Of a DNA stretch of 26,367 nt, positions 7,583 through 24,679 are shown one piece after another. The stretch's first letter is position 1. Each line of letters opens with the position of its first letter. The notes below the pieces were generated by a model. The model did no database searches and was not told the origin of the DNA. It was given only the letters and a program-made list of their open reading frames with translations. Source of the DNA: Gemmatimonadota bacterium (GTDB taxonomy: Bacteria > Gemmatimonadota > Gemmatimonadetes > Longimicrobiales > RSA9); assembly GCA_040905425.1 (NCBI GenBank), contig JBBDRO010000046.1:4836-31202 (forward strand). Direction: 5' to 3'. The translations under genes were made by a program, and so were the position numbers.

Positions 7583-10500
7583 ATGACCGTTCCCACCCCC
7601 GCAGCGCCGCGCACCGAAGCGCCACCCGCCAACCTTGCTGCGCCCGCCGAGCGCGGGGCCCGCGCGCGCCTCCTGTCAGGCAACGAGGCCATTGCGCGCG
7701 GGGCGTGGCAGGCGGGGGTGGTGGTGGGCTGCGGGTACCCGGGCACACCCAGCACGGAGATCCTGGAGGCGCTGGCGGCGCTCCCCGACGTGGACTGCCA
7801 GTGGTCCCCCAACGAGAAGGTGGCGCTGGAGGTGGGGGTGGGCGCCTCGCTGGCGGGCGGCCGGGTGCTCGTCACCATGAAGCACGTGGGCCTGAACGTG
7901 GCGGCCGATCCCTTCTTCTCCGCCGCGTACATGGGCGTGAACGGCGGTCTGGTGGTGGTGAGCGCCGACGACCCGGGCATGCACTCCTCGCAGAACGAGC
8001 AGGACAACCGGCTCTTCGCGCGGGCCGCCCGGGTGCCGCTGCTCGAGCCCGCCACGCCCGCGGAGGCGCTCGACTACACCGCGGCCGCCTTCGCGCTCTC
8101 GGAGCGCTTCGATACGCCCGTCCTGCTGCGCACCACCTCGCGCCTCTCGCACGGCAAGGCGGCGGTGCCGCTCGCGCCGCGCCATGACCGGCTGCCCCGC
8201 CGTTACCGTAAGAACGCCACCAAGAACGTGGTGCTGCCGGCCCACGGCCGGGCGCGCCACCGCCTCATCGAGGAGCGGCGCATGCCCGGGCTGGTGCAGC
8301 AGGCCGAGCGCATGGCCCTGGTCCACGCCGGCACGGGGGACGTGGCGTTTATCACGGCCGGCGTACCCTACCTCTATGTGCGCGAGGCCTTCCCGGCCGC
8401 CGCCGTGCTGAAGCTGGGCATGACCCATCCGCTGCCCGTGGACGTGATCCGTCGCTTCGCGGCCGCCCACCCGCGCGTCCTGGTGGTGGAGGAGCTGGAG
8501 CCCATGCTGGACGAGCAGGTGCGCGCCCTGGGCATTGCCACGCTGCCGCGCACCTGGCCCCGCTACGGCGAGCTCAGTGTGGAGGCTCTCCATGCCGCCC
8601 TTTCAAGCGACGTCCCCGCGCCGGCCGCCGTGGCGCTGCCCGTCCTTCCCGTCCGGCCTCCCGTCCTCTGCCCGGGGTGCTCGCATCGCGGCGCCTTCCA
8701 CGCGCTGAGCCGCATGGACGCCATCGTTTCCGGGGACATCGGCTGCTACACCCTGGGAGCGGTTGCGCCCCTGGCCGCCATGGACGCGTGCATGAACATG
8801 GGCGCCTCCATCGGCATGGCCGCGGGCATGGCCATGGTGCTTCCCGAAGCCGACCGCGCACGGGTGGTGGCCGTCATCGGGGACTCCACCTTCTACCACT
8901 CCGGTATCACGGGGCTGGTGGACGTGGTCTACAACGGCGGCGCGGCCACCGTGCTGGTGCTGGACAACCACACCACGGCCATGACCGGCCACCAGGACCA
9001 TCCCGGCACCGGCCGGCGGCTGAACCAGGAGCCCGCGGGAACGGTGAGCATCGAGGGGGTGGTGCGGGGACTGGGCGTGGCGGATGTCCGCCGCCTGGAC
9101 CCCTACGACCTCATGGCCGCGTGGCGCACGCTGGACGGGGCCGCGGCCACCGACGCGCCCACGGTACTCCTGGCCGAGGCGCCGTGCGTGCTGAAGGAGC
9201 GTGTGGTCTTCGGGGAGCCTGTCATCCTGGACGCCGACGCCTGCACCGACTGCCACGCGTGCGCGGCACTCGGCTGCCCCGCCATCCAGGAGGTGGACGG
9301 CCGGCTGGCCGTGGACCCCCTCCAGTGCACCGCCTGCACGCACTGCCAGCAGGTGTGCGCCGACTGCAACGCCGGCATCGACATCCCGCTGGTGCTGGAG
9401 CTGGTGGCCCGCGACCGCCTCGAGGAGGCCTATCACACGCTGGTGCGCGCCAACCCCTTCCCCGCCGTGGCGGGGCGGGTCTGCCCGCACCCGTGCGACC
9501 ACGCCGTGAATGCCCTGGGCTTCGACCAGCACACCCGCTGGGCGGCCAGCTACCCCGAGCTGCTGGCGCGCTTTCCGGACGCTGCCCACGACGGGCAGAT
9601 CTCCATCCGCCATGTGGAGCGCTGGCTGGGCGACTGGGGTCTGGAACACGTCCCGGGCCGGGCCTTCCAGCCCGCCGAGGAGCGCGGCCAGCGCGTGGCG
9701 GTGGTGGGCGCCGGCCCGGCCGGTCTGGCGGCCGCCTGGCACCTGCGGCGCGGCGGCTTCCGCGTCACGGTCTTCGAGGCCGGGGACGCGCCCGGCGGCA
9801 TGCTGCGCCACGGCATTCCTTCCTTCCGCCTGCCACGCTGGGTGGTGGACGGCGAAGTGCACCGCCTGGAGGAGATGGGCGTCCGCTTCCGCTGCGGGAT
9901 CCGGGTGGGGCGCGACTTCCCCTTCGAGGAGATTCTGGAGGCCCACGAGGCGATCATCGTGGCCACCGGCGCGGGCGCGCCGCGGGAGGCGGGCATCGAT
10001 GGCGCCGAGGAGGCGCTCGGCGTCTGGGACGGTGTGGACTTCCTGGCGCGCTTCAACCGGGGGGACCCGCCTCCGGTGGGGGGACGGGTGGCGGTGGTGG
10101 GTGGCGGGAACACCGCAGTGGACTGCGCCCGCGCCGCGCGGCGGGCGGGCGCTCAGGTGAGCGTGGTGTACCGGCGCGGTGAGGCGGAGATGCCGGCCAT
10201 TCCGGACGAGGTGGACGAGGCGCGGGACGAGGGTGTGGAATTCCACTTCCACGAGCTGCCCAGGCGCGTGGTCACCGACGCCCGCGGCGGCCTCGTGGGC
10301 GTGGAACTGGTGCGCATGGCGGCGGGCGCGCCCGATGCCAGCGGCCGCGCCGCGCCGGTCGAAGTGGTGGGCAGCGAGCGCACCGTGCCCTATGACACGG
10401 TCATCCTGGCCATCGGCGAGCGCCCCGACCTGGCCTTCCTGGGTGGCGTGGACATCCGCACGAACGGCCGGGTGGAGGTGCGCTTCACCGGCGCCACCAG

Positions 10501-10624
10501 CCGCGAGGGCGTCTTTGCCTGCGGCGATGCGGCGTTCGGCCACGGCACTGTGACCCAGGCCATTGCCACGGGCCGGCGCGTGGCCGAGGCGGCCACGAGC
10601 TGGCTGGCGGGGAGGGCGCGGTGA
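7583..10624 (+). CDS. iorA: Indolepyruvate:ferredoxin oxidoreductase alpha subunit fused to a GltD-like FAD/NAD(P)H oxidoreductase domain
   Basis: ATG 7583 with AGGAGA RBS. IorA motifs LLSGNEAIARGA, GYPGTPSTEI, NEKVALE, MKHVGLNVAADP, SSQNEQDNR, RPPVLCPGCSHR, GDIGCYTLG, IGDSTFYHSG, LDNHTTAMTGHQ; 2x[4Fe-4S] motifs; then GIDIP, NPFPAVAGRVCPHPC, VVGAGPAGL, GIPSFRLP, GGGNTAVD, YRR, GVFACGD. Confidence 0.92.
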   Translation: MTVPTPAAPRTEAPPANLAAPAERGARARLLSGNEAIARGAWQAGVVVGCGYPGTPSTEILEALAALPDVDCQWSPNEKVALEVGVGASLAGGRVLVTMKHVGLNVAADPFFSAAYMGVNGGLVVVSADDPGMHSSQNEQDNRLFARAARVPLLEPATPAEALDYTAAAFALSERFDTPVLLRTTSRLSHGKAAVPLAPRHDRLPRRYRKNATKNVVLPAHGRARHRLIEERRMPGLVQQAERMALVHAGTGDVAFITAGVPYLYVREAFPAAAVLKLGMTHPLPVDVIRRFAAAHPRVLVVEELEPMLDEQVRALGIATLPRTWPRYGELSVEALHAALSSDVPAPAAVALPVLPVRPPVLCPGCSHRGAFHALSRMDAIVSGDIGCYTLGAVAPLAAMDACMNMGASIGMAAGMAMVLPEADRARVVAVIGDSTFYHSGITGLVDVVYNGGAATVLVLDNHTTAMTGHQDHPGTGRRLNQEPAGTVSIEGVVRGLGVADVRRLDPYDLMAAWRTLDGAAATDAPTVLLAEAPCVLKERVVFGEPVILDADACTDCHACAALGCPAIQEVDGRLAVDPLQCTACTHCQQVCADCNAGIDIPLVLELVARDRLEEAYHTLVRANPFPAVAGRVCPHPCDHAVNALGFDQHTRWAASYPELLARFPDAAHDGQISIRHVERWLGDWGLEHVPGRAFQPAEERGQRVAVVGAGPAGLAAAWHLRRGGFRVTVFEAGDAPGGMLRHGIPSFRLPRWVVDGEVHRLEEMGVRFRCGIRVGRDFPFEEILEAHEAIIVATGAGAPREAGIDGAEEALGVWDGVDFLARFNRGDPPPVGGRVAVVGGGNTAVDCARAARRAGAQVSVVYRRGEAEMPAIPDEVDEARDEGVEFHFHELPRRVVTDARGGLVGVELVRMAAGAPDASGRAAPVEVVGSERTVPYDTVILAIGERPDLAFLGGVDIRTNGRVEVRFTGATSREGVFACGDAAFGHGTVTQAIATGRRVAEAATSWLAGRAR

Positions 10625-11235
10625 GCGCTCCGGCCGCCGTCGGCGCCCGCACCGTGAATCTGGTGCTGGCCGGGGTGGGTGGGCAGGGCTCCGTGCTGGC
10701 CACCCAGATCGTGGGCCAGGCCGCCGTGCTGGCGGGCCACCAGGTGGTGACCTCGGAGGTGCACGGCATGTCCCAACGGGGCGGTACGGTAGTCACGGCG
10801 GTACGCTACGGCGCCGACCCCGGCGCGCCCACCGTGCCCCGCGGGGAGGCGGACTACCTCGTGGCATTCGAGCGGCTGGAGGGCCTCCGCTTCCTGCCCT
10901 GGCTCCGGCCGGGCGGCACCGTGGTGCTGAACAACCAGGCCATCCGCCCCACCGTGGAGTCCCTCAAGCTGACGGGCTATCCCACGGAGATCGAGGAGCG
11001 CCTCCGGGCGCACGCCGGCACCGTGCTGGTCACGCCGGCGCTGGCACTGGCCAGGGGCATCGGCAATCCCAGGCTGGTCAGCACGGCCGTCCTCGGCGCC
11101 CTCTCCGTGGTACTCGATCTGCCGCGTGAGGCCTGGGAGAAGGCCGTGGCGGGCGCGGTGCCACGACATACGGTGGAGGCCAACCTGGAAGCGTTCAAGG
11201 AGGGGGCACTTATGGCACGCTGGGTGACGTCATGA
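10621..11235 (+). CDS. iorB: Indolepyruvate:ferredoxin oxidoreductase beta subunit
   Basis: AGVGGQG and SEVHGMSQRGGTV motifs, AFERLE, C-terminal EANLEAFKEG; GTGA overlap with iorA. Confidence 0.93.
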   Translation: MSAPAAVGARTVNLVLAGVGGQGSVLATQIVGQAAVLAGHQVVTSEVHGMSQRGGTVVTAVRYGADPGAPTVPRGEADYLVAFERLEGLRFLPWLRPGGTVVLNNQAIRPTVESLKLTGYPTEIEERLRAHAGTVLVTPALALARGIGNPRLVSTAVLGALSVVLDLPREAWEKAVAGAVPRHTVEANLEAFKEGALMARWVTS

Positions 11236-11600
11236 ACATCTGCATTCCTACCGTGGACAACAGTGGCCTGAAGGCGCGGCTTTTTCCCCATTTCGGGAGC
11301 GCCCCGTTTTTCACGATCGTGCGGGCGGAGACGCTGGAGGCTCGATCGCTTGCCAACGAGCATGCCAGGCACGAGCACGGGGCCTGTCGACCCATGGCGG
11401 CCCTGGCGGGCCTGGACGTGGACGTGGTGCTCTGCCGCGGCCTGGGTGCGCGTGCCCTGGAGCGGCTGCGAAGCGGCGGAATCAGTGTCATGGTGGCCGA
11501 CGCCTGGCACGTGGACGAGGCGCTGCGCGCGCTGCGCAAGGGCAGGGCGCGGCCGCTGTTCACCGTGGACGCCTGCCAGGGCGGGCCTCACGAGCACTGA
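11232..11600 (+). CDS. NifB/NifX-family (dinitrogenase FeMo-cofactor-binding fold) small protein
   Basis: 122 aa, ICIP...HFGSAPFF, His-rich HARHEHGAC, VDVVLCRGLGARALERLRSGGI; ATGA overlap with iorB. Confidence 0.8.
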   Translation: MNICIPTVDNSGLKARLFPHFGSAPFFTIVRAETLEARSLANEHARHEHGACRPMAALAGLDVDVVLCRGLGARALERLRSGGISVMVADAWHVDEALRALRKGRARPLFTVDACQGGPHEH

Positions 11601-11618
11601 GGTCGGGCGCGCTCCCCG

Positions 11619-12707
11619 CTACTCCGCGGTGAGCGCCGGCTCGTAGCTGAGCGCCTCCTCTTCCCCGCGCACCACCCGCAGGGCGCCCTCCGCCAGCGCC
11701 CGTAGTTCGTCCTCCCCCGGATAGACGTGCACCGGCGCGATCCACGCCAGGCGCTCGCGCAGCTCCTCGGCCACGGCTGCGGCCTGTACCATGCCGCCCG
11801 TGAGCAAGACGGCGTGCACGCGACCGTCCAGCACGGCGGCCATGGCGCCCGCCTCCCGGCGCACCTGATAGAGCATGGCGTCCAGTACCAGGCGGGCCCG
11901 TCGGCTGCCCCGCTCGATGCGGCGCAGGACCTCGCGGACGTCCCGGGTGCCCATGTAGGAGAGCAGGCCGCCGCGGTGTGTGGCGCGCCGGTAGAGGTCG
12001 GCGGCATCCTCCTGGCCCCGGCGGATACGGTCCAGGAGAGCGGCTACCGGCAGACCGCCGGCCCGGTCCGCGCCGAAGGGCCCCTCCTCGCGGGAGTTGC
12101 ACACTTCCACCATGCGAGCCTCCCGGTGCGCGCTCACCGATATCCCGCTGCCCATGTGGACCACCACCAGGCGGAGCTCCGCATACGCGCGATCCACCTC
12201 CCGCGCGTGGCGCCGCGCCACGGCCTTGGTGTTGAGAGCGTGCGAGAGGCAGGTGCGCTCCAGGCCATGCAGCCCCGACAGGCGGGCCACCTCGTCCCAC
12301 TCATCCACGCTGACGGGATCGACCACGTAGGCCGGTGCGCCCGCGGCCTCGGCCAGCCGGACGGCCAGGAACGCGCCCAGGTTGGAGGCGTGCTCACCGC
12401 GCGCGGCGGAGCGCAGGTCATCGAGCATGGCCGGCCCCACCCGGAAGGTGCCGCTCGGTACCGGGCGCAGCAGGCCGCCCCGGCCGGCCACGGCCGTCAA
12501 CCCGGTCGCGTCCGCGCCCTGGCGCTCCAGCTCGGCTTGCACCGCTTCCAGGCGCGGCTCGAGCTGCGCCAGGACGGGCTGGCTCGTGAGCGTTTCGGGG
12601 TGCTCCACCACCGAGACGAAACGCTCGGAGTCACCGTCGAAGAGCCCGAGCTTGGTGGAGGCCGCGCCGGGGTTCAGTGCCAGAATGGTCGGGACGAGTT
12701 GGCTCAT
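11619..12707 (-). CDS. buk: Butyrate kinase-family acyl kinase
   Basis: Start MSQLVPTILALNPGAASTK; GRGGLL, EHASNLG, VVDPVSVDE, HALNTKAVA, VHMGSGISVSAH, GPFGADRAG, LLTGGM, VYPGEDELRALA. Confidence 0.93.
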   Translation of the reverse strand: MSQLVPTILALNPGAASTKLGLFDGDSERFVSVVEHPETLTSQPVLAQLEPRLEAVQAELERQGADATGLTAVAGRGGLLRPVPSGTFRVGPAMLDDLRSAARGEHASNLGAFLAVRLAEAAGAPAYVVDPVSVDEWDEVARLSGLHGLERTCLSHALNTKAVARRHAREVDRAYAELRLVVVHMGSGISVSAHREARMVEVCNSREEGPFGADRAGGLPVAALLDRIRRGQEDAADLYRRATHRGGLLSYMGTRDVREVLRRIERGSRRARLVLDAMLYQVRREAGAMAAVLDGRVHAVLLTGGMVQAAAVAEELRERLAWIAPVHVYPGEDELRALAEGALRVVRGEEEALSYEPALTAE

Positions 12708-12714
12708 GGGCTGA

Positions 12715-13638
12715 CTAGCTCGCGGCCACCACCGCACCAAGCGTGATGCTGTGCAGCTTATCCTGTGCACTTTCGACCCGGGAAGGGATGAGAACCGGCA
12801 CCCGCGCGCCCACCACCACGTGTGCCGTGATGGAGCCGCCCAGGTACTTCACGGCCTTCCCCAGCACATTGCCGGCTTCGATGTTCGGCAGGACCATGAT
12901 GTCGGCCCGTCCCGCCACGGGACCGGTGATGCCCTTGGCACGGGCAGCCGACTCGAGCAACGCGTTGTCCAGGGCCAGCGGGCCGGCCACGTCGGCCTCC
13001 CGCAGGCCGGGCACCTGCCCGGCGGCGGCGCGTGCGGCCAGTTCGGCGGCCGCCACCGTGGACGCAAGCGCTTCACTCACCACTTCCGTGGCGCTCAGCA
13101 GGGCCACGCGCGGACGCGCGAAGCCCAGCGCGTGGAAGACGGCCACGGCATTGCCGGCAATGGCTGCGAGCTGCTCGGGGGTGGGCGCAGGGTTCAGGCC
13201 GCCGTCGGTGACGCCCACCAGGCGCGGCACGCCGGCGAGCGTATCCTCGTAGAGCAGGACGTCACTGAGCAGACGGCCGGTGCGCAGGCCGCGGGCGCGA
13301 TCCAGGACGGCGTGCAGCAGCTCGTCGGTGCGCAGGGCACCCTTGAGCAGCAGCTCCGCCTCGCCGGCGTTGGCCAGCTCAGCGGCGCGGGCGGCGGCCT
13401 CGGCGCCGTTCTCCGCGGCCACGATCCGGGCGCCGCCGAGCGGTGCCAGCGCGTGCTCGCCGATGAGGGCGCGGATGCGGTCGGGAGAGCCGATGAGAAT
13501 GGCTGTGACCATGCCGCCGCTGACAGCCTCGGATGCCGCGTGGAGCGCACTTGGGCTGTCCGCCGCCACCACCGCCAGGCGCGCGGGTCCGAGCTGTGCG
13601 GCCCGCGTCAGCAACGCAGCAAACGTATCGATCCCCAT
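12715..13638 (-). CDS. ptb: Phosphate butyryltransferase-family acyltransferase
   Basis: LLKGALRT, GLRTGRLLS, TDGGLN, PRVALLSATE, GPLALDNA, PVAGRADI, PNIEAGNVLGK, GARVPVLIPSR; directly upstream of buk. Confidence 0.9.
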   Translation of the reverse strand: MGIDTFAALLTRAAQLGPARLAVVAADSPSALHAASEAVSGGMVTAILIGSPDRIRALIGEHALAPLGGARIVAAENGAEAAARAAELANAGEAELLLKGALRTDELLHAVLDRARGLRTGRLLSDVLLYEDTLAGVPRLVGVTDGGLNPAPTPEQLAAIAGNAVAVFHALGFARPRVALLSATEVVSEALASTVAAAELAARAAAGQVPGLREADVAGPLALDNALLESAARAKGITGPVAGRADIMVLPNIEAGNVLGKAVKYLGGSITAHVVVGARVPVLIPSRVESAQDKLHSITLGAVVAAS

Positions 13639-13723
13639 CCCCGGCCCCCTCCCTGCAGCGCGGGCTCCGAGGGCGCTCCGAACGCCTGCCGGAGCTCCGC
13701 CCCCCAGCCTCGGATCCGTCCGC

Positions 13724-14971
13724 TCAGGGCGTGCCCTCCACCGAGCGGACCGCCGCCAGCACCTCCGCCTCCGTCAGCAAGCGTTCGGAGCGCTTGGCCG
13801 CGGCAAGTACCGCCTGCACCATCTCATGGGTGGCCGTGATGCCTCGGGCCGCCATAAAATAGTGCACGTTGGAGGCCCCCGACATGTGCCCGATCTCGAT
13901 CTCCTGGAGGCGACCCACCCACCCGGCGGGCACGCCGGAGTAGACCCGATCCGCCAACCAATCCTGCCCCTTGCGCTGCGCTTTAATCACGGCGGCCGCG
14001 TGCACCCCCGTGGCGGTGCGGAAAGCGTCACGCCCCACGATCGGCTGATTGACCGGCACCGGCATGCCGAGCGCCTCGCCCGCCACCTGGCAGTACTCCA
14101 TGAGGCACGACAGGTCGTCATCCCGGAGCCCGAGCAGGCGCAGGTTCACCAGGAGCTGCTCCATGGGCGTATTGCCCACGCGCTCGCCCACGCCCAGCGC
14201 CGTGCCATGCACCCTCGTGGCGCCGGCCTCCACGGCGGCCAGTGAGTTGGCCACGTCCAGGCCGCGGTCCCGGTGCCCGTGCCAGTCAATGCCCACGCGG
14301 TCTGCCACACCCAGTTCGGTGAGCAGCTGCTTCACCCAGTGCGTCAGGTTGCGGACTCCCGCCGGCACGGCGGCCCCGCACGTGTCGCACAGGCAGACAC
14401 GGCTGGCGCCGGCGTCCACCGCCGCGGTCAGGAGCACACGCAGGTGTTCGGGCGCGGAGCGGATGGTATCCTCCGTCACATACATGACCTGGAGTCCCTC
14501 ACCCACCGCGAACTCCACGGCCTGCCGCGTGTGGCGGAGCACGTGATCCAGATCCCACTCCTCCGAGTAGTGCCGGATGGGGCTGCTGCCGATGAAGACG
14601 CACGCCTCGATCGGCACGCCCGTCTTCTGCACCACGTCGGCAATGGGCTGGATGTCCACCACCATCGTGCGCGCCGCGCAGTTGGGCCGGATGGACAGGC
14701 GCTCGCGCTCGATCTCGCGGCAGAGCCGTTCGACGGCGTCCCGCTGGCGTGGCCCGGCACCCGGCAGACCCACGTCGGCGGTATCGATGCCCAGGCGGTC
14801 CATCAGGTGCAGCAGACGAATCTTGAGCTGCACGGGCGGATCCTGCACGGAGGGGCTCTGCAGCCCATCACGTAGCGTCTCGTCATCCAGCATCGGCCGC
14901 GGCGGCAGCGCGTCCTCCGCGCCCGCGGGGGCCCAATCATGGATGAGATCCTGGCCTGTGGTACCGCTCAA
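13724..14971 (-). CDS. LeuA/homocitrate synthase-like DRE-TIM metallolyase lacking the C-terminal regulatory domain
   Basis: DETLRDGLQ, TEDTIR, LCDTCG, HGHRDRG, GVGERVGN, IVGRDAF...GVH, GHMSG. Start placed at TTG 14971 (GGGAG RBS) because the track start at 15073 overlaps the TPR gene. Confidence 0.85.
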   Translation of the reverse strand: MSGTTGQDLIHDWAPAGAEDALPPRPMLDDETLRDGLQSPSVQDPPVQLKIRLLHLMDRLGIDTADVGLPGAGPRQRDAVERLCREIERERLSIRPNCAARTMVVDIQPIADVVQKTGVPIEACVFIGSSPIRHYSEEWDLDHVLRHTRQAVEFAVGEGLQVMYVTEDTIRSAPEHLRVLLTAAVDAGASRVCLCDTCGAAVPAGVRNLTHWVKQLLTELGVADRVGIDWHGHRDRGLDVANSLAAVEAGATRVHGTALGVGERVGNTPMEQLLVNLRLLGLRDDDLSCLMEYCQVAGEALGMPVPVNQPIVGRDAFRTATGVHAAAVIKAQRKGQDWLADRVYSGVPAGWVGRLQEIEIGHMSGASNVHYFMAARGITATHEMVQAVLAAAKRSERLLTEAEVLAAVRSVEGTP

Positions 14972-15002
14972 GGTCCGCGTCTCCCAGCTGATGGGTGGCC
15001 GA

Positions 15003-15707
15003 TCAATGGGCGTTCGCGCTGGCAAACTGGCGCGCCTGATCCAGGAGGCGGACGGCGCCCGCCTCATCGCCACGGGAGCGCCGGATGTGCGCCAGGTGGA
15101 AGAGGCTGCTCACCTCACCCACGCCCTCGTCCAGACTCCGCTGGAACTCGCGTTCGGCGGCATCCAGATCGCCGCGGCGCTCGTGGATCACGCCCCTGTG
15201 ATAGCGGGCCATGAGGTACTCGGGCGTGAGCGCGGAGCATTTCTCGAAGTGCTCCAGCGCTTCGTCCAGTTCCCCCGCATGAAAGAGCGCTATGGCCAGC
15301 CGGTAATGGGCGGCGTAGTAGTGCTCGTCCAGCTCGAGGCAGCGGCGGTAGGCCCGGATGGCATCGGGCATGTTGCCCCGATGATAATGGGCCACCCCCA
15401 GGTCGTAGGAACAGAGTACGAAGGCGGGAGAAATCTCGAGCGCCCGGGCGTAGCGCTCGATGGCCAGGTCGAGCGTCCCCTGGTGGAAGTACACCGTGCC
15501 CAGGAGATGGTGGGCCAGGGCATTGTCCGCCTCGGCCTCTACCAGGCGCTTTAGTTCGCGGCGCGCCTCACGGTGTTCACCGGCGGTTTCGCGATGGAGT
15601 GCGTGCAGGATCCTGTGATCAATGAAGGCGTCGCGCAGAAACATCCCGCACTCGGCGCAGAATTTGTCCGTGGCGGCGGCGTCGTGGCCGCATCTAGGGC
15701 ACCGCAT
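15003..15707 (-). CDS. Zinc-ribbon plus tetratricopeptide repeat protein
   Basis: N-terminal CPRCG-x8-FCAECG zinc ribbon followed by about 5 TPR-like units (AHHLLGTVYFHQG, YDLGVAHYHRG, AHYRLAIALFHAG, ARYHRGVIHERRG); GGAGG RBS. Confidence 0.85.
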   Translation of the reverse strand: MRCPRCGHDAAATDKFCAECGMFLRDAFIDHRILHALHRETAGEHREARRELKRLVEAEADNALAHHLLGTVYFHQGTLDLAIERYARALEISPAFVLCSYDLGVAHYHRGNMPDAIRAYRRCLELDEHYYAAHYRLAIALFHAGELDEALEHFEKCSALTPEYLMARYHRGVIHERRGDLDAAEREFQRSLDEGVGEVSSLFHLAHIRRSRGDEAGAVRLLDQARQFASANAH

Positions 15708-15785
15708 GATCGTGCCTCCAGGCCCCCGCGGAAGGGGCCGCTGGTCCGCGCGTTCTCTGGAGGGTGGCGCCCGAACTGGACCGTA

Positions 15786-16091: not shown

Positions 16092-16095
16092 CGCC

Positions 16096-16950: not shown

Positions 16951-17762
16951 GCCTCCTGCTCCACGCGCGTGGGAGACCGCCGCCCGAGCACATGGTCGAG
17001 TGCGAAGAGCGCGGCGCCCAGCGCGCCCATGAAATGGGAGTCGTCGCTTACATTCATCTCCACCCCAAGCCGTTCGTTCAGGGTGGCGATCATGGCCTGG
17101 TTGCGGGCCACGCCGCCGGTGAAGGTGACCTCCTCGTTGATGCCCACGCGCCGCAGCAGGCCGGCGGAGCGCGCGGCGATGGACTGGTGCACGCCCAGCA
17201 GGATGTCCTCGATCTTCTTGCCCTTGCCCAGCCAGGACAGGACCTCGGATTCAGCGAACACGGTGCAGGTGGTGCTGATCTTCACGGGGCGCTCCCCGCG
17301 CAGCGCCGTGGCGCCGAGATCCTCCAGCGGGATGTCCAGCGCGCGCGAGGCCGCGCCCAGGAAGCGGCCGGTGCCGGCGGCGCACTTGTCATTCATGCAG
17401 AAGTCCACGATCTCACCCGTGGGGGCCACGCTGATGGCCTTGGTGTCCTGGCCGCCCATGTCCACGACCGTGCGCGTGGCGGGAAACATGTGCACGGCGC
17501 CGCGGCCGTGGCAGCTGATCTCCGTCACCTGCGTGTTGCCGAAGGTCACCTTGTAGCGACCGTAGCCGGTGCCGACCACGTACTCCACCTCCTCCTCCTG
17601 GAGCCCGCCGGCTTCGAGGGCCTGCTGGAAGGCGGTCTCCGCCGCCCGGATCACGTTGGCGCCCGTCTCCACGAGCGCACGGGCCACGATGCGGCGCTCC
17701 TCACTGATGACCACCGCCTTCGTCTGCGTGGAACCCACGTCCACTCCGGCTGCGTATGCCAT
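16947..17762 (-). CDS. bcrA: Benzoyl-CoA reductase ATP-dependent activator subunit (short BcrA/BadF/BzdQ-like)
   Basis: [66 protein letters not shown]. Confidence 0.87.
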
Positions 17763-17770
17763 GCCGCCTC

Positions 17771-19063
17771 CTAGGCCAGGACCGCCTGCTGTCTGCGTGA
17801 TGCGAGGCCTTCGAAGAAGGCGTCGATGCGATTCTTGAGCTGCGCCTCCGAGACCACCCGCCGATCCATCATGTCGGACTCGATGAAGAGGCTGGCGATG
17901 TCGGCCCGGGCCATCACCGCACGGCGATTGTCGGCCAGGCCGGTGGACACGGTGCGGCAGCTCTTGATGGGGTGGTAGACAATGCCGTCGGCGTCCATGT
18001 CCGCGTACATCTGGATGAGCGCGTCCGTCTGGAAGAACATGCTGTCCATGGCGTCCCGCACGCCCAGCAGCAGACCGTCGGCCAGGCTCTCCAGCGGCCG
18101 GTCCAGGTCATACTGGTAGCCGCGGTTGGCGCCGCCGGACGCGAACCAGAGGTAGGTGGAGGCCACGAAGGTGCCGCCCCACTCGCTGAACAGCTCGTCG
18201 AAGCGCCGGAAAATGGGATAGCAGGGAACGCCCACGAACAGCAGGCGATACTGCTCCTCGGTCAGCGTGCCGATGCCGGCGTCCCGCTTGTACTCCATCT
18301 CCTCGACCAGCTCCTCGAAGAAGCGGGCGCCCTCCGGCGTACCACGCAGGGTGTTGGACACCCCCAGGTAGATGGTGCCGTCGGTGAGTGCGTTGAAGAG
18401 GGAGGGACGCGCCGCGTTCAGCTCCAGTACCCGCTTCCAGCCCCGGTTCATGGTGTTCACGTGGCGCATGTGCTCGCGCAGGCGATCAACGTCGAACCGC
18501 ACGCCGCTGATGCGTTCCAGTTCCGGAATGAGCTCCCGGATCTGCGCCAGCACGTAGCGGCGATCGTTGACCAGCTCGGGGTCGTTCGGGCCGCGCGGGC
18601 CGGCGGAGCGTCCGCCCGGCACGTCCAGCGTGAACGTGGGCGTGCCATACATCCGCTCCCAGATCTCCGCCCACTTGATGTAGGTGTTGCAGGCGTTGGT
18701 GTAGACCGCGAGCGCGGGCTTGGGAACCTGACCCATGGGCAGCTTGCCGCCGCGCAGCTGGGTGGCCACGTCCGCCTTCACGTAGCCGCAGATATCCGGC
18801 GAATAGCCGTAGTCCTCCGCCTCGTTCAGATAGTCGTGCGCGGCGTGCCGCACGGCCGTCTGCAGGGAGTTGATCTCCGGGAAGACAATGGGAAAGTCGA
18901 AGCAACGCAGCAGCTCGGCCATGCTGCCCATGACAAAGACATAGGCCCCGCCGCGCTCCTCTTCCGCCGCCCGCGTGAGGTCGGCGAACCATTCCCGGAA
19001 CAGGCGCGCGCCCTCGGCATTGCCGCGGCCCACGAGCTTGGAAGCCGAATCGGTATGGGGCAT
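17771..19063 (-). CDS. bcrB: Benzoyl-CoA reductase subunit B (BcrB/BadE/BzdO; 2-hydroxyacyl-CoA dehydratase family)
   Basis: [51 protein letters not shown]...KNRIDAFF; context of dch/had/oah. ATG 19063 preferred (AAGGAG RBS); GTG 19069 is an alternative. Confidence 0.88.
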
Positions 19064-19090
19064 CAGCACGTCTCCTTGGCGGTGCGCATG

Positions 19091-20260
19091 TCAGTCGAAC
19101 ATCAGGTTCTCGACGAACGTCTCGAGCTGGATCTCGAGGTGGTCGAAGCTGGTCATGTTCTCCTCGAATTCGCTCACGAAGTACGGGACGCCGGCCTCAT
19201 TCAGGCCATGGACGTACGTGACCTGCTCCTCCAGTCCGGGCTCACACATCTTGGCGGCCGTAATGATGGCCGCGCTCGCGTCCGCGTTCCGGATGCGTTC
19301 CAGCAGCATGGTTTCCTTGGGCTTGCGCAGATCGTGCTGCACCGGGCTGTAGGAGGATGACTCCAGATAGGCGGTGGCCAGCGCCAGGAGCGGATCCCCA
19401 CCCGCGTCCACGTCCTCCAGGATCCAGCGGAGCCCGATGAGGAGGTCATCGTCCACCACGTAGCAGGACCGAGCGATGGCGCGGATCAGGTCCAGCGGCG
19501 GTTGCTCGCAGAAGCCGCCCTCGAAGACCACGCGGATACGGTCCAGCTTGCGGGCGTCGCGGGCGCGGAGCAGGGGGATGGCCTGGCGCAGCAGCGCGTT
19601 GTGCTCCTCGCGTGGCAGGAGCCCGCCCAGCGCCACGAAGATGTAGACCTCGTCGGCGGCGGCCAGCCAGGGGGTTTCCCGCTTCATGGCGTAGAGCTCG
19701 CGGAGCAGGGCCCGGTTCTCGTTGAACACCGCGATCGAATTGCGCAGATCGTCTTCGCTGACGGTGCGACCGGCCACCGCCTCCACGTCCCCGAGCAGGC
19801 GCGCGTACTCGCCGCGCAGGTAGGCGGGGGCGTGCGCCGAGGCCGCGTTCTGCGGCAGGTAGAGGATCTGGCACTTGTAGTCGGCGCTCCGGCCCCAGAT
19901 GCCGGCCAGGTTGCGGGCGGCGTCGCAGATGGGATGCGTGATGAACATGTCCAGCTCCACCCGGCCGCTGAGCGCCAGCTCCAGGGAGGTCTTCAGGATG
20001 GAGCAGAGGTAGGAGCCGAAGCGCGAGTCGGCCTGCAGTGCCTCGACCGGTGCGCCCCGGACCCTGAAGGGCAGCATTCCCGCGGCGTGCACGAGCTCCT
20101 CCGGGAAGTACACCTGGAAGTGGCCGGCCACCTTGCCGCCGGCCTCGCGCCAGCGCCGCACGGTTGGAAAATCAGTATCCTCGAGCAGCTCACGGCAGGT
20201 GTAGAGCAGTTCGTCGAGCGGCTTGTCCCGCCACTCCGGAAATACGGGCACGGAAGTCAT
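19091..20260 (-). CDS. bcrC: Benzoyl-CoA reductase subunit C (BcrC/BadD/BzdN)
   Basis: [67 protein letters not shown]; coupled to dch. Confidence 0.9.
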
Positions 20261-21012
20261 CGGTGGCTCCAGGCCGGAGAGCGCTTCTCCACGAAGGCGG
20301 TGAGCCCCTCCAGGGCGTCCTCCGTGGCCATCAGGTCATCCAGGTAGACGGAGGCGGCGTGCTCGAGGCCACCGCCCGCGTCCAGGGCCGCGGCGCCGCG
20401 CAGCGCACGCTTGGCCGCGCGCAGCGCCGCGCCGCTGTGGCGGGCCATGCGGCCGGCCAGCTCCAGCGCGTGCGCCTCCACCTCCCCGTCCGCCACCACG
20501 CGGCGCACGAGCCCCGCGGCGGCGGCGGCGGTGGCGTCCAGATTGTCCCCGGTGAAGATCAGTTCGGCGGCCAGGGCACCACCGGTGAGGGCGGGCAGCA
20601 GCGCGCAGGCGGCAGGAGGGAAGACGCCCAGGCGGATCTCCGGGAGCCCGAAGACGGCGCTCCGGCCCGCCACCACCACATCCGCGGTCTGCGCCACCTC
20701 GAAGCCACCGCCCAGGCAGCGGCCACGCACGACGGCAATGACCGGCAGGGGGAACTCGTGCAGAGCGCGGATGGTCTGGGTGAACTCCGGAATCATGTCC
20801 CGGAAGTGGGGCGGCAGGTGCTCCTGGACAGCGGCGCCGGCGGAGAAGTGGGGGCCCTCCGCAGCCACGACCAGCACACGGAGCAGGGGCTCCGCGGCAA
20901 GCTCGTCGAGGCACTGCCGCATCTCCGCCAGCACCGCTCGGTTCAGGATGTTGAGCGGTGGGTCGGCCAGCGTGAGCCGGCCGATCCCTCCCTCGAACGC
21001 TGTCTCCACCAT
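20257..21012 (-). CDS. dch: Cyclohexa-1,5-diene-1-carbonyl-CoA hydratase (crotonase family)
   Basis: [64 protein letters not shown]; immediately upstream of bcrC. Confidence 0.88.
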
Positions 21013-21025
21013 GGACCCTCCGCCG

Positions 21026-21772
21026 CTAGATGTACTGGCCGCCGTCCACCCGGATCACCTCGCCCGTTACCTGGCTTGCCAGGTCGGAGCAGAGGAAGAG
21101 CACCGCGTTGGCCACGTCCTCCGGCTCCGTGGGCCGGGTCAGCACCGCCTCCGCCGCCGCCGCGCGCAGCACCTCCGCCGGCAGGGCGCGCGTGAGCTCC
21201 GTGCGCACCAGCCCCGGCGCCACCGCGTTCACCGTCACGCCGAAGGCGCCCGCCTCGCGCGCCAGCGACTTGGTAAGACCGATCATGCCCGCCTTGGACG
21301 CCGCGTAGTTGGCCTGGCCGAACTTGCCCCGCAGGCCGTTGATGGAGGCAATGTTGACGATGCGCCCGCCCCCGCCCGCCCGGAGCGCCGGCAGGGCAGC
21401 CCGGGCATAGGCAAAGCAACCCTTCAGGTTGACGTCCAGCACCTCGTCCCACTCCGTTTCGGCCATCTTCCACGACACCCGGTCCCGCACCACCCCGGCC
21501 GCGCACACCAGGCTGTGCAGACCGCCGAGCGTGGCCACCGCTTCGGCCACCACGTCCCGGGCGCGCTCCAGGTCACGGACATCCGCCTCCAGGGGCAGGG
21601 CCCGCCGCCCGGCACGCGTCACCTCTGCCGCCACGGCCGCCGCCCTGGCCCCGTCACGGTCCACGAGAACCACATCGGCGTCCGCGGCAGCGAGCCGCCG
21701 GGCGATGGCGCCGCCGATCCCGCCCCCGGCGCCGGTCACGAGCGCCACCCGCCCGGCCAGGCTCAGCTCCAC
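21026..21772 (-). CDS. Short-chain dehydrogenase/reductase (FabG/3-hydroxyacyl-CoA dehydrogenase-like)
   Basis: TGAGGGIG, NIASING, catalytic YAASK, VNAVAPG, TGEVIRVDGG; GTG start. Confidence 0.88.
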   Translation of the reverse strand: MELSLAGRVALVTGAGGGIGGAIARRLAAADADVVLVDRDGARAAAVAAEVTRAGRRALPLEADVRDLERARDVVAEAVATLGGLHSLVCAAGVVRDRVSWKMAETEWDEVLDVNLKGCFAYARAALPALRAGGGGRIVNIASINGLRGKFGQANYAASKAGMIGLTKSLAREAGAFGVTVNAVAPGLVRTELTRALPAEVLRAAAAEAVLTRPTEPEDVANAVLFLCSDLASQVTGEVIRVDGGQYI

Positions 21773-21782
21773 GCGAGGGACC

Positions 21783-22901
21783 TCACACGCCCGCCGCCGG
21801 GACGGACTCGGCTGCGGTCCGGTACTGGGGCGAGACCGCGCGCTCCAGCTCCTCGTTCCACGGATGGCCCTCAGCCAGCATCTGACGGAGCTTCACGAAG
21901 TCCACTTCCCGATTGCCCTTGGGACCTTCGTTGAAGGCCCGGAAGCCTACTTTGCCCTCCGTCATCATGTTCAGGCCCAGCCACTCCCGGTTGGTGATGG
22001 CGTTCAGGTCCCAGTGCCGCTGCTTGTGCTTGCGCAGGCTGTTGATGGTCTTGGTGGTACAGTCGGGCATGAGCATGAGCAGCCGCGTGCAGAGACGGTC
22101 CACCGCCGCGTCCAGACCGGACAGATCGGTCTCCGTCCTGGCCAGGGTACGGCGCGCCTCCGCGGCCGCTTCGCCGGTGTGGAAGTCCCCGTAGATCAGG
22201 CGGCCGAACGGGTCCAGGAAGCGGTCGGTGACCACCAGCGGATTGGGAATCCACGCCCCGTCCAGTTTCAGCACGGGCTCCACTTCATTGATCAGTCCAA
22301 TGAAATGCGCGCGATGGGCGCTCCACATGTCGCACAGCACGCCACTCTCCATGGCGCGCCCGAAACCCACGTACAGCGGCAGGAAATCCGTGGATCCGCC
22401 GTCCGGTGCCGAGCCGTGCCGCGGGCCGGCCTGACCGAACACGGCCGTGTCCGCCGCCACGCTGAAGTCGCACGCCATGCCGATCTCCTGCCCGCCGGCT
22501 ATGCGCATGCCGTTCACCCGGTTGATCACCGGTTTGTCACAGCGCAGGATGGCGTCGATCATGTCATTGAAGAGACGCATGTACTGCTTGTACTCCTGCG
22601 GATTGCCCGCGTAGTACTCCGCGTACTCCTTGGTATTGCCACCGGTGCAGAAGGCGCGCTCGCCCACGGCCGTGAAGACCACGGCCACCACCCGGCGATC
22701 CATGCTGGCCTGCCGGAAGGCCAGGATGACCTCCTTCACGGCATCCGTGGTGTAGCTGTTGAACTGCGCGGGGTTGTCGAGCACGATCCAGGCGTTGTGG
22801 AGCCCCTCGGCCACCGTGCCGTCGGGGGCCACGGCGGGGCGGAGCTCGTAGCCGATCTCGGTGAAGCTCTGTTCGGGTACGAGCGTGTGACTCTTCAGCA
22901 T
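21783..22901 (-). CDS. oah: 6-oxocyclohex-1-ene-1-carbonyl-CoA hydrolase (ring-cleaving; Oah/BamA/BzdY)
   Basis: Start MLKSHTL (GAGGAGG RBS); diagnostic LDNPAQFNSYTT, AFCTGGNTKEYAEYYAGNPQEY, VNGMRIAGGQEIGMACD, GQAGPRHGSAPDGGSTDFLP, REWLGLNMMTE. Confidence 0.96.
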   Translation of the reverse strand: MLKSHTLVPEQSFTEIGYELRPAVAPDGTVAEGLHNAWIVLDNPAQFNSYTTDAVKEVILAFRQASMDRRVVAVVFTAVGERAFCTGGNTKEYAEYYAGNPQEYKQYMRLFNDMIDAILRCDKPVINRVNGMRIAGGQEIGMACDFSVAADTAVFGQAGPRHGSAPDGGSTDFLPLYVGFGRAMESGVLCDMWSAHRAHFIGLINEVEPVLKLDGAWIPNPLVVTDRFLDPFGRLIYGDFHTGEAAAEARRTLARTETDLSGLDAAVDRLCTRLLMLMPDCTTKTINSLRKHKQRHWDLNAITNREWLGLNMMTEGKVGFRAFNEGPKGNREVDFVKLRQMLAEGHPWNEELERAVSPQYRTAAESVPAAGV

Positions 22902-22911
22902 GGCAGCCTCC

Positions 22912-23964
22912 TCAGGTACCGGCGGGGACCAGCACGGCGCGCCGGTCGATTTCGTGATCCGCAACGGCCCGCAGGACCTCGGCGCCGTCGTGCAGTGGGT
23001 AGGTACGGACGAAGGGGCGGACGGCCACGCGGCCGCTGGTGACCAGCTCCAGCGCGGCGGGGTAGAGCTCGGGCAGGCAGCCCCACGTGCCCTGCGCCGT
23101 GGCGTCGAAGGCCATGAGGTTGCTCAGCCGCAGGTTCACCCGGGCCATGGTGAAGCCCACCACCATGAGCGTGGCCGCGTGGTTGAGCAGCCCGAAGGCG
23201 GTCTCCTGCCCGGCCGGGTGGCCCGAGCACTCGAAGATCTTCCAGCCGTGGTCGGGGCAGCCCCACGCCCCTGCTGCCTCCTTCACGCGGCCCCGTAGCT
23301 CCTTGAAATCCAGCGCGGAGGAGTCCAGCGTGAGCCGGGCACCATGCGCCGCGACCGCTTCCAGACGTGTGGCATCCACATCCACGGCCACCACGTGGGC
23401 CCCCAGCGCCGCCGCGATCTGCACGGCGTAGGTGCCCACGCCGCCCACCCCCACCACCACTGCCAGGTCACCGGCGGCCAGCCCGCTCCGCACCACCGCC
23501 TGGTAGGGGGTGGTCACCGCGTCGGCGATCACCGCCAGCTCGGCCAGCTCCAGGCCGCCGCGCTCGTCCACCATGCACAGGCCACGCAGCGGCACGCGCA
23601 CGAAGTCGGCAAAGCCTCCGTCCATGTCATTGCCCGGCATGAGCTGCCGGCGGCAGGCGTTGCCGCGGCCGGATGTGCACAGGGCGCAATTGCCGCACGG
23701 AATGACGGCGGGCACGATGACCTCCCGTCCCACCAGGTGCTCCGCCGCGCGGCTTGCTTCCACCACCACGCCGGCGATCTCGTGCCCGAGCGTGAGCGGG
23801 AGCGGCTTGCGCGTGGCCACGCCGTCCCGCCAGAACCCCACGTCGGTATGGCAGACGCCACAGCCCGCCACCTCGACCAGGACGTCCCCGGGGCCCGGCT
23901 CCGGCCGGGCCACGTTGCACAACTCCAGCGGTCCGCCCGGTACCGTCAACTGCAATGCCCGCAT
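22912..23964 (-). CDS. had: 6-hydroxycyclohex-1-ene-1-carbonyl-CoA dehydrogenase (Zn-ADH; Had/BamQ/BzdX)
   Basis: Start MRALQLT (GAGGAGG RBS); GCGVCHTD, LGHEI, PAVIPCGNCALC, MPGNDMDGGFA, ADAVTTPYQA, KIFECSG, RLSNLMAFDA, WGCLPELYP. Confidence 0.95.
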   Translation of the reverse strand: MRALQLTVPGGPLELCNVARPEPGPGDVLVEVAGCGVCHTDVGFWRDGVATRKPLPLTLGHEIAGVVVEASRAAEHLVGREVIVPAVIPCGNCALCTSGRGNACRRQLMPGNDMDGGFADFVRVPLRGLCMVDERGGLELAELAVIADAVTTPYQAVVRSGLAAGDLAVVVGVGGVGTYAVQIAAALGAHVVAVDVDATRLEAVAAHGARLTLDSSALDFKELRGRVKEAAGAWGCPDHGWKIFECSGHPAGQETAFGLLNHAATLMVVGFTMARVNLRLSNLMAFDATAQGTWGCLPELYPAALELVTSGRVAVRPFVRTYPLHDGAEVLRAVADHEIDRRAVLVPAGT

Positions 23965-24025
23965 GCCCTCCTCCCGTCCACACATGGTCGGCCGCGCCCG
24001 CCGCGGCCCCTCGATGCCTGCCGGC

Positions 24026-24679
24026 TCAGCGGTAGAGCCCGCCCAGCAGATAGTCCGCGAACTGCTCGCCGAGCTCCGTACCGGTCATGCGCCCGTCCGG
24101 CCGGTACCAACGCGCAATCCAGTTGACCGCACCGAGGATGGCAAACACCGCCACCTTCGGATCCGCCGCGCGGAACACGCCGAGCGCCACACCGTCGGCA
24201 ATGAGGTCCCGCAGAACGCGCTCGTAGGCGTCGCGGCCGGCCACGATCTCCGCCCGCCGCTCCGCCGACAGCGCGGGCACCTCGAAGGCCAGCGGCGAGC
24301 CCTCCAGCGTCTCGGTCATCACCCGCACGTGCTCACGGATAAGGAAAGCCAGCCGCTCAGCCGGCCCGTCACAGCACTCGAGCGAGGCCGAGATGAGGCG
24401 CTCCAGCTCCGCCAGCGATTCCCGGTGGCAGGCGTAGAGGATGGCGTCCTTGTCCGGGAAGTAGTGGTAGAGCGCCGCCTTCCGGATGCCGATCCGCTCC
24501 GCGATGCCCTCGAGCGTGGCGGTGTGGAAGCCTTGCTCGCGCACCTCGGCCAGCGCGGCATGCAGGATCTCCTCACGCCGTCGGGCGCGCTTGGCCTGCA
24601 CGTGGGCGCTGGCGGAAGTCGGCGCGGAGCGCGAACCGCTCGCCGCCCGCGAACCACTCCCCGCAGAAGTTATACTCAT
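24026..24679 (-). CDS. TetR-family regulator (KstR2/PaaR-like) heading the benzoyl-CoA operon
   Basis: HTH GFHTATLEGIAERIGIRKAALYHYFPDKDAIL; C-terminal ILGAVNWIARWYRPDG. Start uncertain (low-complexity N-terminus). Confidence 0.88.
   Translation of the reverse strand: MSITSAGSGSRAASGSRSAPTSASAHVQAKRARRREEILHAALAEVREQGFHTATLEGIAERIGIRKAALYHYFPDKDAILYACHRESLAELERLISASLECCDGPAERLAFLIREHVRVMTETLEGSPLAFEVPALSAERRAEIVAGRDAYERVLRDLIADGVALGVFRAADPKVAVFAILGAVNWIARWYRPDGRMTGTELGEQFADYLLGGLYR

Follow-up and report, generated by a model that had tools for sequence, protein, structure and literature searches.

The stretch of DNA described here, called the window throughout, covers 26,367 nucleotides (nt) of contig JBBDRO010000046.1 from a Gemmatimonadota bacterium of the Longimicrobiales lineage (assembly GCA_040905425.1) and contains a compact gene cluster predicted to encode a class I benzoyl-CoA reductase together with the enzymes of the subsequent ring-cleavage pathway. 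It is joined by genes for an indolepyruvate oxidoreductase (IOR) and for Ptb and Buk, members of the phosphate acyl/butyryltransferase and butyrate kinase families. Genes were called from a list of open reading frames (ORFs) in combination with a filter on codon-position G+C content (GC3) and with Pfam and NCBIfam scans, and start codons were picked by upstream Shine-Dalgarno-like sequences and agreement with homologues. Many shadow ORFs are present because the G+C content of the window is about 72%.

Read from position 24679 downwards, the minus strand carries tetR for a TetR-family regulator at the operon head (24026..24679), had for 6-hydroxycyclohex-1-ene-1-carbonyl-CoA dehydrogenase (22912..23964), oah for 6-oxocyclohex-1-ene-1-carbonyl-CoA hydrolase (21783..22901), a gene for a FabG-like short-chain dehydrogenase/reductase (SDR; 21026..21772), a gene for a Dch-like dienoyl-CoA hydratase/enoyl-CoA hydratase (20257..21012) and the four reductase genes for the gamma (bcrC, 19091..20260), beta (bcrB, 17771..19069), alpha (bcrA, 16947..17762) and delta (bcrD, 16096..16950) subunits. 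They are followed by genes for a conserved small CxxC protein (15786..16091), a Zn-ribbon and tetratricopeptide repeat (TPR) protein (15003..15707; Pfam TPR families and Zn_ribbon), a divergent Claisen condensing enzyme resembling LeuA and homocitrate synthase (13724..14971, the start being uncertain between 14971 and 15073; PF00682 HMGL-like, E 6e-42), Ptb (12715..13638; PF01515, E 2.9e-39) and Buk (11619..12707, start refined; TIGR02707). The gaps between these genes are, in the same order, 61, 10, 10, 13, -4, 21, 8, -4, 4, 78, about 31, 85 and 7 nt. On the plus strand, the gene of an IorA subunit fused to a C-terminal NfnB/GltD-like iron-sulfur (Fe-S) flavoprotein domain (7583..10624), iorB for a POR gamma-like subunit (10621..11235; Pfam POR, E 1.4e-41) and a gene for a small Nitro_FeMo-Co (NifX-like) protein (11232..11600; PF02579, E 2.2e-18) converge on this array, and the stops of the nifX-like gene and buk are 18 nt apart. 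The ATG start at 7583, with AGGAG upstream, is the one assigned before. A preliminary description of this DNA had listed these genes in the same order, with gaps of -4 to 85 nt and a central pathway (bcrCBAD, dch, had, oah) complete in one unit; all of this was recovered by the ORF list, the GC3 filter and the Pfam and NCBIfam scans, and the refined gaps span the same range. Only the SDR gene between oah and dch had been missed.

Class I enzymes have been divided into the BCR, MBR (3-methylbenzoyl-CoA reductase) and BZD types, the first two of which form permanent heterotetramers (PMC11971306). The class I layout is found in the adjacent genes at 16096-20260, where PF06050 occurs twice (beta and gamma subunits) and PF01869 twice (the ATPase subunits alpha and delta). 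In comparisons with the PDB, the gamma subunit matched MbdN best (9g87_B, 550 bits, versus 86 bits for BzdN) and the beta subunit MbdO (9g87_A, 504 bits, versus 87 bits for BzdO), while the best matches of the alpha and delta subunits were MbdQ (9gai_D, 419 bits) and MbdP (9gai_C, 305 bits), respectively. The HadB and HadC chains of 2-hydroxyisocaproyl-CoA dehydratase scored 111 and 125 bits, well below the Mbd chains. The equivalog models of the Thauera BCR type (TIGR02259-02263) were all missed (A 204.5 vs 578, B 216 vs 487, C 260 vs 421 and D 132 vs 313), as were those of the BZD type (TIGR03190-03192; N 87 vs 454, O 92 vs 449 and Q 187 vs 380). Judged by these scores, the reductase is of the MBR type and not of the Thauera BCR or Azoarcus BZD type, which narrows its earlier assignment to class I.

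Oah and Had pass their equivalog cut-offs (TIGR03200, 553 vs 464; TIGR03201, 460 vs 339). The Dch-like hydratase stays below that of TIGR03189 (197 vs 292.5), yet this is its best-scoring model and its gene stands at the expected position. The SDR (adh_short and adh_short_C2 in Pfam) is probably a 3-hydroxyacyl-CoA dehydrogenase of the lower pathway. As predicted from its sequence, the unit tetR-had-oah-SDR-dch-bcrCBAD-small encodes an ATP-dependent, MBR-type class I aryl-CoA ring reductase and adds the hydratase, dehydrogenase and ring hydrolase that would take the dienoyl-CoA to 3-hydroxypimelyl-CoA. The operon is presumably controlled by the TetR-type repressor (TetR_N and TetR_C_24 in Pfam). 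The beta subunit has many close homologues (76-88% identity), which, where named, come from metagenome-assembled genomes (MAGs) of Gemmatimonadota or Longimicrobiales; a tblastn search of plasmids with BcrB returned only distant relatives with less than 27% identity.

Recurrence of the operon in other genomes

A BcrB search of species-representative genomes yielded 596 relatives, of which the best 80 loci (70-83% BcrB identity) were kept with 10-kb flanks and searched by tblastn with every window protein. All counts given below refer to these best 80 loci (L followed by a number), many of which lie on short contigs. They derive mostly from Gemmatimonadota and also from Acidobacteriota, Chloroflexota, Eisenbacteria and one MAG labelled Verrucomicrobiota. 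Besides BcrA (79 loci), BcrD (78) and BcrC (76), matches were obtained for the small protein, encoded after bcrD (68), and for Dch (54), Oah (51), Had (51), SDR (50) and TetR (38). The LeuA-like protein was matched in 21 loci, the Zn-ribbon/TPR protein in 14, IorB in 11, and Ptb, Buk and a membrane Fe-S protein encoded upstream of the operon in two each; the NifX-like and efflux genes of the window gave no tblastn match in any of the 80. Of the 43 loci whose contigs extend 9 kb or more upstream of bcrB, 34 have TetR, 36 Had and 35 Oah. The corresponding numbers for at least 9 kb downstream (n=44) were 40 for the small protein, 17 for the LeuA-like protein, 10 for the Zn-ribbon/TPR protein, 11 each for the IorA-GltD query and IorB, and two each for Ptb and Buk.

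The MBR-type enzyme with a full dch/had/oah set is thus common in MAGs of Gemmatimonadota, Acidobacteriota, Chloroflexota and Eisenbacteria, and the core of the window represents a known kind of system in a little-studied phylum. A passage of PMC10936416 regards the occurrence of class I bcr genes in the FCB (Fibrobacterota, Chlorobiota and Bacteroidota) superphylum as rare outside Krumholzibacteriota and, for Gemmatimonadota, notes hcrABC and badA in Longimicrobium alone. Going by that passage, the breadth of the MBR-type clusters does not appear to be common knowledge.

Several variants of the cluster were encountered. The Oah matches fall into 35 with at least 55% identity and 16 with 31-51%; in the latter 16 loci (e.g., L040, L041, L055, L058, L065 and L077) the gene at the oah position encodes a different, divergent and hydrolase-like protein of the enoyl-CoA hydratase type, and a Had-like gene (35-41% identity) mostly stands behind the small protein and not ahead of the operon. 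The variant may serve the degradation of another ring compound. A thiolase of the SCP-x type and a ChsH2-like Zn-ribbon/OB-fold protein, absent from the window, are encoded between the SDR and dch genes in 14-16 loci (e.g., L014 5490-7097 and L024 6399-8006) and probably serve thiolytic cleavage of 3-oxopimelyl-CoA. Four loci (L019, 1522-8610; L020, L021 and L027) possess a second reductase, of the Bzd type, which passes the BzdN and BzdO equivalogs. Encoded along with it are two ATPase subunits, a flavoprotein of 855 aa (Fer2+Fer4+GltD-like) and, in a Cys-rich ORF of 93 aa, a ferredoxin-like protein. This set lies directly upstream of the MBR-type bcrCBAD, so that two class I types stand in tandem. 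PaaX-like regulators replace TetR in eight loci from Acidobacteriota and Chloroflexota, and hemerythrin genes follow the small protein in eight loci.

Accessory genes and their linkage to bcr

The IorA fusion contains the Pfam domains POR_N, TPP_enzyme_C, Fer4_10, Fer4_20 and Pyr_redox_2 and has its IorB (POR) partner next to it. It scores below the IOR_alpha cut-off (TIGR03336, 612 vs 651 bits), as does IorB with the IorB models that match it best (188 vs 237); IorB also matches the PadE model weakly (NCBIfam, E 1.6e-6). Unfused IorA proteins of other loci pass IOR_alpha (L050, 685) or are borderline (L019, 649). The flavoprotein part (Fer4_20 and Pyr_redox_2, residues 632-1046) is closer to large-subunit chains of Nfn in the PDB (239-268 bits; 9n5u 268, 4ylf_B 253) than to GltD (181 bits), and an NfnA-type small-subunit partner was not found in the window. 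The fusion is a widespread architecture, since more than 100 clusters of full-length relatives of about 1000 aa exist (50-67% identity, 91-96% coverage, one at 92%), the named ones from Longimicrobiales, Bipolaricaulota/Acetothermia and Deltaproteobacteria, with the JGI label IOR alpha subunit. A literature search retrieved no paper describing an IorA-GltD-type fusion. Of the remaining accessory proteins, Buk passes the butyrate kinase equivalog (388.6 vs 289.1), and Ptb has the Pfam domain PTA_PTB and lies below the NCBIfam cut-offs (TIGR02706, 237 vs 410). The LeuA-like protein has the HMGL-like domain only, passes no NCBIfam synthase model (best score 195 vs 517) and finds its best PDB match in homocitrate synthase (118 bits).

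An IorA gene is located within 10 kb of bcrB in 14 loci, three of them partial (L001, L013, L018, L019, L020, L022, L023, L024, L027, L029, L031, L033, L044 and L050), and the GltD part is fused to it in L001 only. In twelve loci the bcr strand continues past the small-protein gene, with short gaps, into the LeuA-like gene, iorA and iorB; some of them add a TPR gene before the LeuA-like gene, a transglutaminase-like gene after it or, between the small-protein and TPR genes, a leuB of opposite orientation. IOR and Ptb-Buk genes together adjoin the bcr operon in three gene orders, namely that of the window, that of L001 (iorA-gltD, iorB, tetR, had and onwards to the small protein, beyond which buk and ptb lie on the other strand) and that of L050 (buk, iorA, iorB, ptb, tetR, had and onwards); Ptb-Buk are confined to loci with the closer type of IOR (53-62% identity). 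A stand-alone Fer2+2xFer4+GltD/NfnB-like flavoprotein of 763-855 aa is encoded beside bcr in five loci. Its gene immediately precedes bcrC in L019, L020, L021 and L027; in L010 it is found on the other strand, some 7 kb downstream. Both halves of the window fusion are therefore separately associated with bcr.

On a BcrB tree of 80 rows, comprising the window and 79 loci (L064, whose ORF did not cluster, was dropped) and having many weakly supported forks, only rows with enough flanking DNA were scored. The minimum number of state changes was eight for IOR (35 rows, 15 positive), seven for the LeuA-like gene (57 rows, 22 positive) and three for Ptb-Buk (30 rows, three positive), and such repeated changes indicate that the association is optional and has been repeatedly made or kept. 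The three arrangements likewise suggest that the link of IOR and Ptb-Buk to the operon is real but optional. The expected synteny of the accessory genes with bcr in other genomes holds in part, as shown by the counts for IorA and the LeuA-like gene and by the three gene orders. No paper joining the terms 'indolepyruvate', 'benzoyl-CoA reductase' and 'butyrate kinase' was found in the literature. L050, from a record labelled Akkermansiaceae, is the sole locus outside the usual phyla with buk-iorA-iorB-ptb; its BcrB groups with that of the Gemmatimonadota locus L049 (99% local support), which suggests a mis-binned contig or horizontal transfer.

The window was said to lack genes for a CoA ligase and a ferredoxin, and motif, Pfam and NCBIfam scans bear this out: it contains neither a motif of AMP-forming ligases nor a separate ferredoxin ORF. 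Fe-S domains do occur, as Fer4_10 and Fer4_20 inside the IorA fusion and, with a CxxCxxCxxxC motif, in the membrane protein at 24825-25886. When a relaxed AMP-binding signature was scanned over the 80 loci and the window (1.28 Mb, six frames), plausible adjacent ligases were detected in L036 and L073 only, which leaves 78 loci without one. A scan of the 80 loci for the CxxCxxCxxxCP motif revealed no small canonical ferredoxin ORF; the motif is confined to IorA proteins and Fe-S flavoproteins, save one 540-aa ORF in L068. The absence of an adjacent ligase or ferredoxin is the rule for this reductase family and not a peculiarity of the window. It is therefore uninformative and cannot by itself indicate a ligase-free pathway. 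With ligases so rarely adjacent and Ptb-Buk and IOR present in just two and 14 loci, the family must obtain its benzoyl-CoA by means of genes located elsewhere. In L052, L069 and L070, proteins of about 960 aa resembling ADP-forming acyl-CoA synthetases are encoded upstream of tetR. They were rejected as activating enzymes because a C-terminal GNAT domain gives them the look of a Pat-type protein acetyltransferase; Pat of Rhodopseudomonas reportedly acetylates benzoate-CoA ligase.

The small protein, of about 101 aa, starts 4 nt past the bcrD stop, at the place of fdx in Thauera. Where it occurs, it always comes directly after the delta subunit. It has no Pfam or NCBIfam match, a PDB sequence search gave chance-level matches only, and an atlas search returned unnamed clusters only. 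In a 46-sequence alignment the residues G39, W40, R43, Y58, G62, C80, C83, Y95 and T96 are invariant. Of the representatives detected by a profile search of a 50%-identity library, 898 reach E<=1e-3 and 439 reach E<=1e-10; the top 150 by score measure 71-155 aa. The AlphaFold2 model (mean confidence, pLDDT, 79.5) consists of a long helix followed by a beta-alpha-beta-alpha-beta unit, and a fold search of the PDB with it found nothing at E<=0.001. The earlier label of CxxC protein is correct, with the qualification that there is one CxxC only. A ferredoxin was considered and rejected, given this single motif and only two conserved Cys residues. As a fifth member of the operon, the protein may act as an adaptor or redox partner.

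Divergently from tetR and just beyond the 7583..24679 span of the preliminary description, the plus strand encodes a polytopic membrane protein (24825..25886) with two CxxxCP motifs and one CxxCxxCxxxC. It has no Pfam match, and its look-alikes in the atlas are Fer4_5/NapH-like proteins of a 'ferredoxin family', some of them fused to FAD oxidoreductases. Homologues are encoded directly after the small protein in L010 (13269-14267) and L012 (about 11619-12512). It may be a membrane electron-input protein. A further plus-strand ORF (25852-26367) runs off the window end; its translation has a twin-arginine-like signal (RRTFVRS...), and the stretch after it resembles by eye the N-terminus of an FAD-linked oxidase, with no Pfam or NCBIfam match. 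The divergent promoter region (24680..24824) holds a palindrome, TTGACCGAGAGGGTCAA, at 24721-24737 and a repeat, GAGTCGAA, at 24680 and 24699. These are candidate operators only: within the window both elements, the palindrome having the form TTGACC-N5-GGTCAA, are confined to 24680-24737, in numbers not above shuffled controls. A promoter and terminator scan of 7000-25000 likewise gave nothing above shuffled expectation. At the other end of the window, the minus strand carries a creatininase fragment and an efflux operon (2-7392), the latter (344-7406) with genes for TetR, an OEP outer-membrane factor, an HlyD-type adaptor, two ATP-binding cassette (ABC) ATPases and two ABC-2 permeases. A palindrome, ATTCATAC-GTTT-GTATGAAT, at 7387-7406 overlaps the start of the efflux tetR, which is divergent from iorA.

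A possible supply of electrons and ATP

Class I reductases require two electrons and two ATP per ring, and a thiamine pyrophosphate (TPP)-dependent 2-oxoacid oxidoreductase provides two electrons of low potential along with an acyl-CoA. Work on class I benzoyl-CoA reductases has been almost confined to Proteobacteria, in which they are fed by a dedicated ferredoxin and a 2-oxoglutarate oxidoreductase. For the delivery of electrons at about -500 mV in the soil and sediment bacteria considered here, the recurrent IOR and NfnB/GltD-like neighbours are concrete candidates. In the reading favored here, the IOR would oxidatively decarboxylate some 2-oxoacid to an acyl-CoA, and the electrons would pass along its Fe-S chain, either reaching the electron carrier of the reductase or being exchanged with NAD(P)(H) by way of the fused flavoprotein. 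Ptb and Buk would convert the acyl-CoA to the free acid with the gain of one ATP. Since the reductase consumes both low-potential electrons and ATP, such a module would deliver both. We favor this optional supply of low-potential electrons or NAD(P)H plus ATP by IOR and Ptb-Buk over the alternatives below, with a likelihood a little short of even. A supply role would also explain why the IOR and the GltD/NfnB-like flavoprotein recur separately near bcr and are fused in the window.

Several findings weigh against a supply role. No IOR is present within 10 kb in 66 loci, though many contigs are short, and among the 29 loci flanked by 9 kb or more in both directions only eight matched the IorA-GltD query. 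Ptb-Buk are found in two loci and the NifX-like gene in none, and the IorA-GltD fusion is common in other lineages. LeuB, which is encoded next to the LeuA-like gene in seven loci and passes its equivalog (419.7 vs 393), is a biosynthetic enzyme, so that part of the accessory block may belong to amino-acid metabolism. No operator shared by the bcr promoter region and the regions upstream of iorA or ptb was found. In addition, all trees were computed with FastTree only and have many weakly supported forks.

Some of these points would be accommodated if no dedicated link existed, the IOR-Ptb-Buk set being an ordinary fermentation module for amino acids or 2-oxoacids and LeuA-like/LeuB a part of amino-acid metabolism, all of them chance neighbours of bcr in some Gemmatimonadota. 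This is favored by the LeuB score, the lack of a shared operator, the wide distribution of the fusion and the absence of the accessory genes from most loci, with a confinement to Gemmatimonadota-like clades of the BcrB tree. In the window, moreover, iorA is read in the direction opposite to bcr and forms a divergent pair with another TetR gene and the efflux operon. Against coincidence speak three gene orders that hold IOR and Ptb-Buk directly against the bcr operon, 12 loci in which LeuA-like-IorA-IorB continue the bcr strand with short gaps, and GltD/NfnB-like flavoproteins that stand independently beside bcr in five loci. We regard it as a serious rival, somewhat less likely than the supply role. 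In a different role, Ptb-Buk could act on the product side and convert butyryl-, crotonyl- or acetyl-CoA from ring cleavage to acids, with ATP that partly repays the reductase. Fermentative or syntrophic benzoate degraders do convert short acyl-CoAs to acids with a gain of ATP, and the location of ptb and buk on the bcr strand, behind the other genes and after spacers of 85 and 7 nt, the butyrate-kinase assignment of Buk and the presence of the SDR, and of a thiolase in other loci, which would start the beta-oxidation of 3-hydroxypimelyl-CoA, agree with this role. Against it stand the rarity of Ptb-Buk and their opposite strand in L001. They also accompany an IOR in all three cases and in L050 flank iorA-iorB on one strand, which points to the IOR product as their substrate. 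The product-side role is compatible with a supply by the IOR and seems improbable to us.

The preliminary description had the IOR and Ptb-Buk produce the aryl-CoA itself, by IOR action (e.g., on phenylglyoxylate to benzoyl-CoA), by activation of benzoate via benzoyl phosphate by Buk and Ptb, or by both, within a self-contained, ligase-free module. Three arrangements next to bcr and the lack of a ligase in the window are in line with this, and links to aromatic amino acids are hinted at by the PaaX-like regulators of eight loci and by tryptophanase/tyrosine-phenol-lyase-like genes within 10 kb of bcr, likewise in eight (L003, L010, L012, L016, L032, L065 and two more), that of L010 passing the NF009709 subfamily cut-off. 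An NAD-linked phenylglyoxylate:acceptor oxidoreductase of Azoarcus reportedly forms benzoyl-CoA; to its PadE model IorB gives only the weak match noted above. Ligases are absent from far more loci than Ptb-Buk or IOR could serve, however. With Ptb-Buk in two loci and the fusion in one, neither can account for benzoyl-CoA formation across this reductase family in general. The products of characterized IORs are arylacetyl-CoAs, which are not substrates of the reductase; no alpha-oxidation genes for the conversion of arylacetyl-CoA to benzoyl-CoA turned up in the window or in the genes that recur around the related operons, and Buk gives no hint of aryl specificity. IOR and Ptb-Buk thus probably do not supply aryl-CoA, and production of the substrate by them is quite unlikely in our estimate. 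Nor is it established that the locus by itself leads from an amino acid or 2-oxoacid to ring cleavage. What can be kept of the initial interpretation is the complete pathway, the partial synteny and, with the tentativeness stated above for the supply role as a whole, the provision of low-potential electrons by the IOR.

If the supply of electrons and ATP is carried one step further, Gemmatimonadota and allied uncultured phyla might run an MBR-type reductase without a classical ferredoxin, with the small CxxC protein as its redox partner or adaptor. The latter would be charged by an IOR coupled to NAD(P)H through the fused NfnB-like flavoprotein, and Ptb-Buk would recover ATP from the same 2-oxoacid. 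This extension is speculative, and we give it a slim chance. If true, it would describe a portable electron-and-ATP supply pack for an enzymatic Birch reduction.

Comparison with known systems

Combinations of a 2-oxoacid oxidoreductase with an ATP-yielding step are familiar from amino-acid fermenters, where archaea couple IOR to an ADP-forming acyl-CoA synthetase and bacteria possess clusters of 2-oxoacid:ferredoxin oxidoreductase, Ptb and Buk genes. The window resembles these in keeping IorAB, Ptb and Buk together, and L050 does so in one string, buk-iorA-iorB-ptb. It differs in that the set adjoins a ring-reduction operon and in that IorA, in the window and in L001, bears the NfnB/GltD-like domain. 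In anaerobic aromatic metabolism, Azoarcus evansii is said to have a 2-oxoglutarate:NADP+ oxidoreductase and an NAD-dependent phenylglyoxylate oxidoreductase, PadEFGHI, that forms benzoyl-CoA. These enzymes likewise join a 2-oxoacid oxidoreductase to a component that binds flavin and NAD(P). In the window, by contrast, that component is an NfnB-like domain of the IorA-type subunit itself, and the resemblance to PadE is weak.

In Thauera aromatica, the supply role proposed here is reportedly played by 2-oxoglutarate:ferredoxin oxidoreductase (KGOR, KorAB) together with succinyl-CoA synthetase. KorAB, too, would be a TPP-dependent 2-oxoacid oxidoreductase serving as a low-potential electron source, whereas the oxidoreductase of the window belongs to the IOR family. 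The bcrCBAD-fdx cluster of the same organism is said to share the bcrCBAD order and the dch, had and oah genes of the subsequent pathway, and differs from the window in its fdx gene and in the Thauera-type equivalogs, which the window subunits miss.

The closest counterpart is the mbd cluster (MbdONQP) of Thauera chlorobenzoica and Azoarcus sp. CIB. A passage on its regulation describes MbdR as a TetR-type repressor of the cluster that senses 3-methylbenzoyl-CoA (PMC4424350). The TetR protein of the window is only weakly similar to the MbdR structure (4uds, 44 bits), its host is a member of the Gemmatimonadota and not of the Betaproteobacteria, and counterparts of the ferredoxin gene (MbdM) and the ligase gene (MbdA) are not encoded nearby. 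The window arranges its subunits as gamma-beta-alpha-delta and adds the conserved small CxxC gene after delta. Common to both systems are a TetR-family regulator and adjacent genes for the hydratase, the dehydrogenase and the hydrolase, and each of the four reductase subunits of the window, which belong to two families, has its best match in the Mbd counterpart.

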